From Nostoc sp. DedSLP01 (lineage in GTDB: Bacteria; Cyanobacteriota; Cyanobacteriia; Cyanobacteriales; Nostocaceae), in contig JAVRCJ020000010.1 of the NCBI GenBank assembly GCA_034530875.2, forward strand, positions 1 through 64,000: DNA of 64,000 bases, written 5' to 3'. The position numbers and the translations under genes were made by a program. This document shows, in pieces, positions 38,471 to 41,843 of this stretch. Numbering within the stretch: position 1 is the stretch's first letter; each line of letters begins with the position of its first letter. The notes under the pieces are model-generated. The model was given only the letters and a program-made list of their open reading frames with translations. It did not search any database and was not told the origin of the DNA.

Positions 38471-38926
38471 TCACGGATGGGGTGGTATAAAACTAGTTGG
38501 GTTCACAGGTGTGACTTCAGAAGCATAGCGGTTAAAGTCCCTAACGTTGAAAGTTAAGATATGGGTTAGTCTGTTGACTAACATTGAGGCTACAAGCCTA
38601 GCATCGTGGACATTTACCCCCACTACCCCATACTGTAAAATTAATCGCTTCCACTCTGGATAAATCTCAGGTACATCTGGCAGTACCAAGAAGAAACTTT
38701 CTAAACGCTCCAGTTCCGTCCTAGCTTCAGCTATGGTTAAGCCTAAGCCGTTCCTTTGGCTAGGTCGTGTTGCACTTCGCCAAAACTCTATGAGGTTTTG
38801 TGAGGTAATAAAAAGCTCTGACTCTGCGACTCGTAAAGTTGAGATTGCATTCAGTGTATCTGCATACATTGGGTGGTGTGGCTGTACGCTTAGTAACAAT
38901 AAGTTGGTATCGACAAGATAAGTCAC
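38471..38926 (-). CDS. PIN domain (VapC) toxin
   Basis: YLVDTN, QNLIEFW, VHDARLVA, TFNVRDF. Confidence 0.9.
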   Translation of the reverse strand: MTYLVDTNLLLLSVQPHHPMYADTLNAISTLRVAESELFITSQNLIEFWRSATRPSQRNGLGLTIAEARTELERLESFFLVLPDVPEIYPEWKRLILQYGVVGVNVHDARLVASMLVNRLTHILTFNVRDFNRYASEVTPVNPTSFIPPHP

Positions 38927-39256
38927 TTAAATATCTTCGGACTCCTCATCATCGTATATTCCCGCCCGACTTAAAGCATACTCAGATAGTAAGGGCGTAT
39001 CTCGCCTATGGCTCTCTGCCCATTCCCGAAAAGCTGTTATCCACTCAAGAGCCGTCGCAGTTTTGTAAAATGGTTGCTCCTGTTTTGATTTCATCAACTG
39101 CTCAAGCAATGCATCCAAATGTGGCTTAACCACTTCAACAGGGAGCTTAGTTACGTTTGCTAACACCTGTACAACGCCTTCTAACTCTTCTGTGTTAGCG
39201 TCTGGGGGTAATGGTAGTATTTGATTGTTATTGTTGATCGCGCTATCAGTTTCCAC
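38927..39256 (-). CDS. Putative cognate antitoxin
   Basis: Small acidic gene abutting vapC; FREWAESH...PLLSEYALSRAGIY. Confidence 0.75.
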   Translation of the reverse strand: METDSAINNNNQILPLPPDANTEELEGVVQVLANVTKLPVEVVKPHLDALLEQLMKSKQEQPFYKTATALEWITAFREWAESHRRDTPLLSEYALSRAGIYDDEESEDI

Positions 39257-39477
39257 AAATAATGCTGAAATTACTTCCTAGTTTAATTATCATGGTTTTA
39301 AGCTCCACAGGCAAAACCAGAGAAACGGAATTATTGGGGTAGCTGCTTGCTAGCAGGAATGATGATTAAAGGGAAGCCGAAAAAGTCTTCGCCTGGGCAA
39401 ATGAGTTTACCTTGGGACATGTTGATTAATTCGTGAAAAAATAGGCTGTAATTAATATTTACAAATTTCTGAAAGCC

Positions 39478-40749
39478 TTAAATATTACACTTTACAAGTC
39501 TCGATGCGAGAGAAGAGAATAAACGAAAACGAACGAACGAACCAAAAAGGAAACGACGGCGACGACAACCAACGAACGCATTGAATTCCGAAGAACCGTA
39601 GGTGTCCCTAAACTTTTCCCAAGCTTCTTTGTCATATTTACCATCAAGTTTACCACCAACACTTAGGTAAATTTCCTTTTGAACGCTGAAGCCAAAACGC
39701 CCGTTGCTATATTTTACCCACAAGCGATCAATTGTGCGGAGGTCTTTGCAAGGAAAGTTCAAGAATTCTTTCTCTCTAATCCAATCATGTTCTTTACGAC
39801 CTACAGCTTGAAGCATCACTAAGTAAGTTTCATTATCAGCTTCTTTCCAATATCCTACTGCTAGGTAGTCTCGTAGTTTTCTGTAATCTACCCCTACTTC
39901 TGAACTCAAATCATCGGATATAGTTTGGTCAAGTAATAAATATAACCATCCTTGTATAGATTTTGGACGTTCATTTGCTTCTAACCTCATTCCCTCAATA
40001 ATTGCAAAATTTAATTGTTCGCTAATATTTGGATTGTGTTGCTTTGGTTCTATTAAATCAGCTTGATGATATTTGCGATCCCAGGAACTTGTAGGATATT
40101 CACCTGTAACTATATAGTAAAGTGTTGCCGCTAAACCGTAAATATCTACTGCTATATCTTTACTACCCATCATCTGCTCATAAGGAGCAAAGTTTTTATT
40201 ACCAAAACTTCTAGAAAAAGAAGTTGCTGGGGCAATATCTCCTGCTAAACCAAAGTCTATTAAAATTGGTAGGTTACCGCTTCGCAACATGATATTGCCG
40301 GGGTGAATATCACGATGCACTATTAAATTTTGATGCATCGCTGTTAGTGCATCTCCAATTTGGCAAATGTATTTTATAGCTTCTGCTTCTGGTAGTGGTG
40401 TTATTAATTCACCTTCAATTAAATCAATTAAATTTTTACCAGCAATAAATTCCATTACTAAGCATGGTGTATTGCTGTCGCCTTCTTCAAAATAATCAAT
40501 TACCCGCACAATGTTTGGGTGAGGTTCTTGGCAAAGTTGACCTAATAATTCAGCTTCTTGGATAAATTTCTCTACATAGCGGGGATATTGTTTATCTCTT
40601 TTGAGGCGCATATTAGGCGTTTTAATGACAACTGGTAGGTTAATTCGGCTGTGTATAGCTTTATAGGTAATGCCGAAAGCACCTTGTCCTAATTCGTCTT
40701 CAATGATGTATTTACCATTTTGTAGTTGATGACCTTTATTCCAGTACAT
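39478..40749 (-). CDS. Ser/Thr protein kinase with C-terminal GUN4-like domain
   Basis: LGQGAFGITY, HRDIHPGN, IDFG; LSSEVGVDYRKLRDYL..WKEADNET..FPCKDLRTIDRLWVKYSNGRFGFSVQKEI. Confidence 0.93.
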   Translation of the reverse strand: MYWNKGHQLQNGKYIIEDELGQGAFGITYKAIHSRINLPVVIKTPNMRLKRDKQYPRYVEKFIQEAELLGQLCQEPHPNIVRVIDYFEEGDSNTPCLVMEFIAGKNLIDLIEGELITPLPEAEAIKYICQIGDALTAMHQNLIVHRDIHPGNIMLRSGNLPILIDFGLAGDIAPATSFSRSFGNKNFAPYEQMMGSKDIAVDIYGLAATLYYIVTGEYPTSSWDRKYHQADLIEPKQHNPNISEQLNFAIIEGMRLEANERPKSIQGWLYLLLDQTISDDLSSEVGVDYRKLRDYLAVGYWKEADNETYLVMLQAVGRKEHDWIREKEFLNFPCKDLRTIDRLWVKYSNGRFGFSVQKEIYLSVGGKLDGKYDKEAWEKFRDTYGSSEFNAFVGCRRRRFLFGSFVRFRLFSSLASRLVKCNI

Positions 40750-40820: not shown

Positions 40821-41843
40821 TTAATTTGGTGGTTTTGTTGGGGGTAGTGTTGGTGTTAATTTTTCTGTGGGTGAAGGCGATGGTTTGATGAAGATTTCTC
40901 GAATATCTTGTTGGAAAATTCCTGTGAATATTGCTATGACTGCAAGAATTAAACCTATTATTGTAAGCCATAATTCGTAATTAATTCTTCTTGATTCTGG
41001 TTCATTTGTATTGATAACAAGTATCGATTTTAATCCGAGTGAATCTAGCCAAGCTTGAATCGATTGGGGGCGTTTTTTGGGGTCTAAATCCATTGCCCAA
41101 AGAATATTACGATTGATGTTATCGCTAATTTGAGGATTTAAGTCTTTTGGTTCTGGTAATGGAGTATGATTTTGCAGGCGTTCTTTGGCGCTGGTTGGTA
41201 CTTGTCCTGTCAATAAGTTGTAAAGTGTGGCTGCAAGTGAATAAACGTCGGTATATGCCCCTAGTTCAATTGTGTGTGAATATAGTTCAGGTGGCGTAAA
41301 ACCTGCTTCGGCTTCTGTTTCTAAGTTGCTGACACTCAGTTTTTTACTGTCGATTCCCCGTGCTAGCCCAAAGTCAATTAACACAGCTTCTTTTGAACCA
41401 GCCCTAATCATAATGTTGGCTGGCTTGACATCTCTATGCACCAGGTTATTTTGATGTACTACCGTTAACGCTTCGCCGATTTGTTGGATGTATTGCAGGG
41501 CGTCTGCTTCTGGCAAAATATTCTGTGGGCGATGGGCTAAATCGATTCCGGCGATGTACTCCATTGCTATGCACCACAAATCCTCCTCCTGAAACGGATC
41601 TTCTAAGAGGCGCACAATATGGGGATGTTTGCATTTAGCTAGTTTGAAGGCTTCTTGGACAAATCTTTCTTGCAACCTTTTGAAGTCTGCTTGGTTCAAT
41701 AATCGATCGTCCAGGGTTTTGACGACAATGCGATCGCCTTTTTCATCTTTGGCGAGATAAGTAATGCCAAAACGTCCCCGCCCTAATACACTTTCGAGGG
41801 TATATTTACCCCCTTGCAACTGCTTTGGAACTGCCCAAACCAT
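40821..41843 (-). CDS. Ser/Thr protein kinase with C-terminal TM segment
   Basis: LGRGRFGITY, HRDVKPAN, IDFG; LWLTIIGLILAVIAIFTGIF. Confidence 0.92.
   Translation of the reverse strand: MVWAVPKQLQGGKYTLESVLGRGRFGITYLAKDEKGDRIVVKTLDDRLLNQADFKRLQERFVQEAFKLAKCKHPHIVRLLEDPFQEEDLWCIAMEYIAGIDLAHRPQNILPEADALQYIQQIGEALTVVHQNNLVHRDVKPANIMIRAGSKEAVLIDFGLARGIDSKKLSVSNLETEAEAGFTPPELYSHTIELGAYTDVYSLAATLYNLLTGQVPTSAKERLQNHTPLPEPKDLNPQISDNINRNILWAMDLDPKKRPQSIQAWLDSLGLKSILVINTNEPESRRINYELWLTIIGLILAVIAIFTGIFQQDIREIFIKPSPSPTEKLTPTLPPTKPPN

Follow-up and report, generated by a model that had tools for sequence, protein, structure and literature searches.

A putative indel-driven hypervariable gene ending, closed by a block with a stop in each reading frame, in GUN4-like genes of Nostoc and other cyanobacteria

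The window analysed here is a 64,000-nucleotide (nt) stretch of Nostoc sp. DedSLP01, whose genome comprises 8.57 Mb. On its minus strand, the coding strand of the gene that concerns us, an open reading frame (ORF) of 423 amino acids joins a Ser/Thr kinase to a truncated GUN4-like domain (Table 1). The kinase part matches the Pfam Pkinase profile over residues 15-234 with 128.6 bits (cut-off 31.7) and qualifies as a Hanks-type kinase. The GUN4 match (residues 283-379, 103 bits) covers only profile positions 2-100 of 141. The ending of this gene and of its relatives consists of three parts, namely conserved GHLP codons, a variable segment (V), and a terminal DNA block that provides a short Ser/Leu-rich tail and a stop codon in each frame.

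In the window gene, V contains no A on the coding strand over 60 nt (39521-39580; plus-strand counts A31 C16 G13 T0), and a single A occurs over 39506-39580. A small hairpin and three TAA stops follow, and the three frames end in SSLASRLVKCNI*, LFSRIETCKV* and SLLSHRDL*. An earlier note, made from the letters of this DNA, had described the A-poor stretch, the hairpin, the stops with their 7-nt spacing and the three endings; all of these are in place, the endings as read by translation. Given an A frequency of 0.2955, one would expect about 0.013 runs of at least 60 nt without A or without T in 8.57 Mb, so the tract is non-random. There are 19 runs of this length free of A and 19 free of T in the genome, most of the others being, by eye, C/T-rich tandem repeats of heptamer type, and the window tract is of a kind unusual for this genome. 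Tandem Repeats Finder calls a single repeat within it, (AACG)x3.8 at 39528-39542, and it has no homopolymer run; the 3-mer diversity of the window V lies below that of composition-matched shuffles (z -2.94). Elsewhere in the genome, a 134-nt tract at C5:354798-354931 consists almost entirely of G and C homopolymer runs and is possibly an assembly artefact.

The frame in which the window gene ends is itself the product of a lesion. A DNA search across 127 genomes of the genus yielded eight orthologues (L212-L219), all with an intact GUN4-like domain that reads ...EKFGDRVGWR...GHLP. Their alignments to the window gene end at query positions 1191-1196, corresponding to 39610-39605 of the window, where 76 nt are missing as measured against L212. 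Because 76 leaves a remainder of one when divided by three, the window gene is read in a shifted frame from GHL onward; the alternative frame across the GHL codons reads *GHLRFFGIQCVRWLSSPSFPFWFVRSFSFILFSRIETCKV* (*GHLRFF...LFSRIETCKV*). The window ORF nevertheless stays open, since its V holds no A and the terminal region stops each frame. Judged from its sequence, the window copy is broken in its sensor domain and is not a working variant, while its kinase part looks whole; we regard it as a fossil and not as an active locus. The window protein reaches position 100 of the 141 in the GUN4 core profile (PF05419) and intact relatives reach 124-132, so neither has the full core, whereas the true Gun4 of the same genome (contig C9) matches through position 141.

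Table 1 Features at the end of the kinase-GUN4 gene in the window.
Feature	Position	Strand	Basis or remark
ORF, 423 amino acids, Ser/Thr kinase and truncated GUN4-like domain	39478..40749	-	ORF list, Pfam
Kept part of GUN4-like domain, profile positions 2-100 of 141	39613..39903	-	Pfam
Junction of the 76-nt frameshifting deletion; codons for GDRVGWR...AP gone	39605..39612	-	8 orthologues retain the segment
GHL codons (GGACACCTA), out of frame with the upstream gene	39599..39607	-	alternative-frame translation
Variable segment V, including the A-free tract 39521-39580	39521..39598	-	aligns to 0 of 8 orthologues; single-copy
Terminal block conserved as DNA, with weak hairpin and three stops	39445..39520	-	orthologue identity 0.76-0.85
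Hairpin TCTCG-CAT-CGAGA	39499-39511	-	sequence
TAA stops	39492-39494, 39485-39487, 39478-39480	-	spaced 7 nt, one per frame
Remnant, 44 codons, C-terminus of a convergent RAYT-like Y1 transposase gene	39302..39436	+	stop-to-stop ORF ...RNYWGSCLL...PGQMSLPWD

The orthologue series reveals how differently V and its surroundings have changed. Among the nine copies, window included, eight share a pairwise gene identity of 0.87-0.92, and L219, the ninth, reaches 0.73-0.79 against the rest. In most 30-column segments of the nine-gene alignment, the kinase and GUN4 domains are 0.85-0.96 identical, whereas mean pairwise identity in the V core (columns 1411-1500) is 0.11-0.26. Each of the nine orthologues carries a V of its own, unrelated to the rest and 35-91 nt long, in agreement with the claim of the earlier note that a hypervariable stretch of changing length precedes the tail. 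Against L219, identity is 0.81-0.95 for the tail, compared with 0.73-0.79 for the gene, and the tail is used in all frames: three of eight copies end in frame A, two in frame B and three in frame C. The kinase-GUN4 linker of the same nine genes can be aligned with indels only. Within that linker, L217-L219 have a common insertion of about 120 nt (alignment columns 885-975), and L218 has additional short tandem repeats (ACTACATCTGATGACCAA); unlike V, such indels are ordinary and can be aligned.

A pair of loci from the wider family gives the same picture. L060 and L128 are 0.95 identical upstream and 0.97 identical downstream of V, and their V, of 29 and 86 nt, are unrelated. The borders of V are sharp and lie directly 3' of GG.CA.CT.CC and directly 5' of TTCTTCTCTCGC. 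Rewriting of V is fast relative to the roughly 3-13% divergence of its flanks, and within populations none is seen in contigs. At the left boundary, L175 (G033:C2:1-3103) has four tandem copies of the GHLP-codon segment (GGGGGCACCTCCCGACTTTCT...) just 5' of the tail, at about 1150-1310 of the reverse strand, and comparable duplications occur in L008, L009, L058, L203 and C32.

The terminal block recurs far beyond these orthologues. A 17-mer pattern taken from it, CGCRTCSAGACTTGTAA, matches at least 119 loci, and 71 of 80 titles among the matches listed are cyanobacterial, from several orders. Conservation extends from about 10 nt upstream of the pattern to about 45 nt past the last stop. A GHLP-like motif lies upstream in 103 of the at least 119 loci, and relative to this motif the stop position is +14 in 23 of the 103 (SLLS[HR]RDL*), +21 in 45 (LFSR[IV]ETCK[LV]*) and +28 in 23 (SSLASRLVxCNI*); the remaining 12 stop elsewhere, 7 of them prematurely. 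A protein census independent of the DNA pattern assigned tail A to 40, tail C to 39 and tail B to 29 of the best 120 of 740 GUN4-like proteins, and another tail to 12, with one visible misassignment of C to A and five A-like tails among the others. The statement in the earlier note that all three endings occur among GUN4-domain proteins is therefore correct. Genes that use different frames share one block sequence. As N-terminal modules, members of the family have kinase, caspase, TIR, NACHT-like, AAA or CHAT domains, the set that Kaur et al. also give for cyanobacterial GUN4 fusions (PMC7159879).

Our genome contains three copies of the 27-nt tail motif at up to six mismatches, two after GHLP codons and the window copy after GHL. 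At L006 (C35:65599-68712), an orphan GUN4-like 3' fragment at about 1500-1960, with a 45-codon ORF ...GHLPLGGVDPKYHSLFSRVETCKL*, sits behind an alpha/beta-hydrolase-like gene and is followed by a 75-codon RAYT remnant; tail and remnant align with those of the window. L002 (C5:121910-122305, minus strand) is a GUN4-like paralogue in which a TGA interrupts the frame ahead of GHLP and the tail, in the KLVDCNI* frame, has diverged; it is probably another decaying copy.

The hairpin in the block is real but weak, as the DNA fold of 39440-39525 is no better than that of shuffles (z -0.78). A CCAGA variant that breaks one of its pairs is found in 16 of 67 family loci. An RNA element or terminator at the gene end was considered and rejected: between 39200 and 39800 there is no Rfam match at E up to 1 and no intrinsic terminator, and RNAalifold on the block, with 93 sequences (the window row being 14 nt short), gives -0.34 kcal/mol and 3 pairs, none of them covarying.

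Across the family, V was characterized at 101 loci selected by a stricter GHLP rule. Its length is 13-152 nt (median 54) and its composition A.186, C.128, G.378 and T.308; the coding sequence upstream has A.302. V shows little codon periodicity (Cramer V.05 vs.13 upstream). Its slippage-like repetitiveness exceeds that of composition-matched shuffles and of same-length coding controls by both measures (p ~3e-6), and G runs of at least 6 and at least 5 occur in 18 and 35 of the V, respectively. A stop in the used frame is present in 4 of the 101, and stops in the two unused frames in 58 and 51; A-free runs of at least 60 nt occur in 3. The window tract is thus an extreme of an A-poor tendency of the family, and openness in any frame is not a family rule; the frame-proofing resides in the terminal block. 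Three proposals of the earlier note hold only in part in this light. Openness in any frame applies to the window tract but not to the family; adenine depletion stands as a tendency (mean A 0.186), with C lower still (0.128); and frame switching is borne out by intact genes that end in all three frames, whereas the frame of the window gene itself is due to the deletion in its GUN4 domain.

One stop per frame, the presence of all three tails in intact genes and the G runs of at least 5 would suit a phase-variable switch, in which homopolymer, short-repeat or transcriptional slippage toggles a gene between three C-termini. We consider such a switch improbable. The stops in unused frames of 58 and 51 of the 101 V mean that most genes could not toggle; the window tract offers no homopolymer and only (AACG)x3.8, and contigs from three runs of one study show no length variants. 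In simple-sequence contingency loci, phase variation arises through slipped-strand mispairing. The GUN4 endings resemble such loci in having a repetitive, indel-prone tract inside a coding region, where a change in length shifts the frame. They differ in that the shift leaves the gene on, each frame ending in a short tail, in that most V are not regular repeats, and in the lack of length variants in the contigs seen.

We also looked for sources from which V could be copied. The window V has only chance matches of up to 18 nt elsewhere in its own genome. L010 and L008 each have a V that occurs once in its genome (G006 and G024, respectively), and the V of L128 is found in its own genome only among the 127 genomes of the genus. 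Gene conversion from silent cassettes is unsupported, as second copies of V were not found in the genomes examined. Inverted copies of the flanks occur in 2 of 99 V, with no enrichment, and direct copies are enriched only slightly.

Adenine depletion in a variable region that closes a multidomain signalling gene on its 3' side, with a small hairpin behind it, recalls the target of a diversity-generating retroelement (DGR), in which adenine-directed mutagenic retrohoming proceeds from a template repeat, and the genome has two genes with an RVT_1 domain (C12, C5). An A-tolerant, ungapped scan of the whole genome on both strands found no template beyond the tract itself; the next candidate is incompatible at 16 of 102 positions and is no more than an A-rich sequence. 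The V of the orthologues are unequal in length (35-91 nt) and cannot be aligned, the fold is that of GUN4 and not of a C-type lectin, and the RVT_1 genes lie on other contigs. A DGR target is therefore ruled out as the identity of this ending by the missing template, the variation in length and the fold, and any residual chance that one is involved is very slight. The earlier note had rightly set the locus apart from classical DGR behaviour, the differences being replacements and indels; the A-rich template copy for which it called was not found in the scan.

According to parts of PMC7517822 and PMC7159879, the variable proteins of cyanobacterial DGRs share with the GUN4-like family their kinase, caspase or TIR N-termini and a hypervariable extreme C-terminus, presumably a ligand-binding surface, followed by conserved DNA. 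As far as these accounts go, the DGR proteins differ in having a C-type-lectin/FGS fold and A-to-N substitutions at fixed length, whereas V shows replacements and indels on a GUN4-like fold. The GUN4 endings, moreover, use three frames, and neither a template nor a linked reverse transcriptase was found with them.

Using phmmer, an intact orthologue matches the Gun4 structure 1Z3X at E 2e-20; V falls opposite ...LTNQLRGVQVL..., and the frame-B tail SLLSH opposite ALLNH of Gun4. In Gun4, the counterpart of V by alignment is alpha7 together with the end of the alpha6/alpha7 loop. For the stretch that follows Pro208 in the Synechocystis protein (PMC1084334), porphyrin is modelled over Leu210, Arg214 and Arg217 hold its carboxylates, and Arg214 is essential. 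From the residue names, we infer that GHLP corresponds to Gun4 residues 205-208. By this alignment, V would take the place of helix alpha7 and of the alpha6/alpha7 loop end that contacts the ligand, including Arg214 and Arg217. Compared with Gun4 (PDB 1Z3X, 1Y6I), the family has a homologous core domain up to GHLP and V in place of the Arg214/Arg217 loop and alpha7. In all nine members tested, whatever the tail frame, the Pfam match runs out at profile position 124-132 of 141, and it extends into the tail in no frame; a phmmer comparison with 1Z3X points tentatively to frame B as the ancestral one of the tail.

Our data suggest that the gene ending is a hypervariable cassette that changes through indels and is completed by a frame-proof terminal block, and that the window copy has decayed; we put the probability of this reading at about 0.6. 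V would arise through repeated local events, in which deletion is combined with stuttering synthesis or the re-copying of short motifs, and the block would set their site. Because the block stops each frame, a V of any length still gives a complete protein, and because the lengths of V are not multiples of three, lineages shift among frames. With the frame changing often, selection may in turn act on the block in every one of the frames, and such a three-frame constraint would conserve about 40 nt regardless of the frame in use.

Several observations weigh against this interpretation. Conservation of the block for about 45 nt beyond the last stop is inexplicable by three-frame coding. C is depleted more than A in V, so that avoidance of stop codons alone does not explain its composition. 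Copies of at least 10 nt from the upstream flank occur in 3 of 99 V and internal repeats of at least 10 nt in 7 of 99; as long exact local duplications are this rare, slippage is not proven as the main source of V. A metagenome scan for closer copies returned 11 loci, among which three contigs with identical flanks also share an identical V. In contigs from three runs of one study, from which this DNA may itself derive, the stretch is unchanged, although contigs drop rare variants and are uninformative on them. A fourth run, from a soil metagenome, held only tails of relatives, and a search of a plasmid collection gave no near-identical copy of the window end.

The cassette reading leaves three points unexplained, namely the 45 nt past the last stop, the depletion of C in V and a linkage to a RAYT-like gene, and these keep a dedicated, nuclease-triggered mechanism alive as a minority option. 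The window carries a remnant of the linked gene, 68% identical to the copies in L009 and C35. The full-length relative in L009 (252 amino acids) matches Pfam Y1_Tnp with 67.7 bits (cut-off 23) and scores 69.2 against NCBIfam REP_Tyr_transpos, below the cut-off of 80. Convergent with the GUN4-like gene and at a fixed distance from the block, a RAYT-like gene is present in full length at 15 and as a remnant at 28 of the 101 loci. The family occurs in 28 of 41 related genomes, mostly broken, at 0-6 copies per genome. Viewed from its side, a tail-like motif is found at 18 of 30 fetched loci, most of the other 12 being 5' fragments or cut by contig ends, and a GUN4-like domain precedes the tail at all 8 loci inspected. 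V beside full RAYT genes are more A-poor (.12 vs.195, Mann-Whitney p.035, the loci not being independent). In Nostoc flagelliforme CCNUN1, plasmid pNFSY08 has a CHAT-domain gene followed by an intact copy annotated as 'transposase'. On pNPUN01 of N. punctiforme PCC 73102, the corresponding place is taken by a gene of just 84 codons.

These associations raise the possibility that a RAYT-like nuclease with Y1/HUH chemistry reads the block as single-stranded DNA and nicks the boundary of V, which error-prone or untemplated repair then rewrites. The fixed distance, the co-occurrence of tail and GUN4-like domain, the assignment to Y1_Tnp, the A-poor V beside full genes and the intact copy on pNFSY08 would all be in keeping with it. 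Parts of PMC7517822 report IS200/IS605 transposases near 9 variable proteins of cyanobacterial DGRs and interpret them as dispersal agents. At the window locus, however, each of the nine orthologues retains no more than a remnant of the RAYT-like gene, at least five with the same 5' truncation point, and yet their nine V differ. No intact copy of the family was found in our genome and the five orthologue genomes searched. Either turnover is independent of the enzyme, or the enzyme was once supplied in trans by intact copies that were later lost several times. At 11 full-length loci, no consistent inverted match to the block was found past the RAYT gene, and the hairpin is weak and does not covary. 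That a RAYT-like HUH nuclease initiates the rewriting of V is therefore a tentative proposal. We are equally hesitant about its fuller form, a diversity system free of reverse transcriptase in which a domesticated RAYT-like HUH nuclease acts in cis or in trans on the 3' block to rewrite a GUN4-like ligand-binding loop, the block having evolved for three-frame ends. The trans-acting diversifier suggested in the earlier note is not upheld: its sole linked candidate is the RAYT-like Y1 gene, a remnant in the window, and no variation at the population level is seen.

Compared with RAYT/REP and IS200/IS605 systems, the linked gene is likewise a Y1_Tnp protein with visible HUH (HVH) and RYIHANP motifs, and its 3' end adjoins a conserved block that contains a small hairpin. 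The block differs from a REP in not being a dispersed repeat, with 3 copies in our genome, and in lacking an inverted flanking partner, and the score of 69.2 against REP_Tyr_transpos stays under 80. The linked gene also differs in being mostly broken, in its 0-6 copies per genome and in standing beside GUN4-like genes (8 of 8 inspected). Over 39250-39419, the window remnant and the spacer towards the next gene are 93-94% identical in four orthologue genomes, somewhat above the 84-92% of the kinase gene, which is odd for a piece of a dead gene.

A simpler account does away with any dedicated mechanism: V would be an unconstrained loop that drifts by ordinary slippage, and the block would be coding sequence plus the 3' end of an often dead neighbour. 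The cryptic simplicity of V, with G runs of at least 6 in 18 of 101, its stability where flanks are identical, and its continued turnover where no intact RAYT was found fit this account. It sits poorly with the spacer and linker, which stay alignable (~0.76-0.85) while V is at random level in all nine orthologues, and with the sharp boundaries of V. The block, besides, is conserved as much as or more than the gene (for L219, 0.81-0.95 vs 0.73-0.79) and is unchanged whichever frame is used. We hold drift of this kind to be unlikely, somewhat more so than the nuclease, and favour the indel-driven cassette.

This widespread cyanobacterial gene ending is apparently undescribed; the literature searched, subscription journals lying outside its coverage, held no description of one. 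Newly found here are the orthologue series for the window locus, the 76-nt deletion, the turnover of V where no intact RAYT was found, and the observation that most V are not open in all frames. In multicellular cyanobacteria, GUN4-like domains form the C-termini of kinase, caspase, TIR, NACHT and CHAT proteins, the very architectures targeted by DGRs. Should V be a ligand-binding loop that is variable by design, it would represent a second way to vary such sensors, for which no reverse transcriptase is needed. A DNA block constrained in three reading frames would be an unusual coding solution in itself. Gene callers and alignments will misjudge such ends, and frame-shifted copies like that of the window appear intact. 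Strains in which the neighbouring Y1 gene is intact permit a direct test.

Two further features lie beside the kinase-GUN4 gene, both on the minus strand. At 38471-39256 are two small abutting ORFs, one of 109 amino acids and then one of 151 starting MTYLVDTNLLLL, which may be an antitoxin and PIN-type toxin pair. Directly upstream of the kinase-GUN4 gene, at 40821-41843, a tandem Ser/Thr kinase gene encodes 340 amino acids (Pkinase 133.6 bits) without a GUN4 domain, and the same tandem pairing of kinases occurs in relatives, as adjacent matches on one contig.

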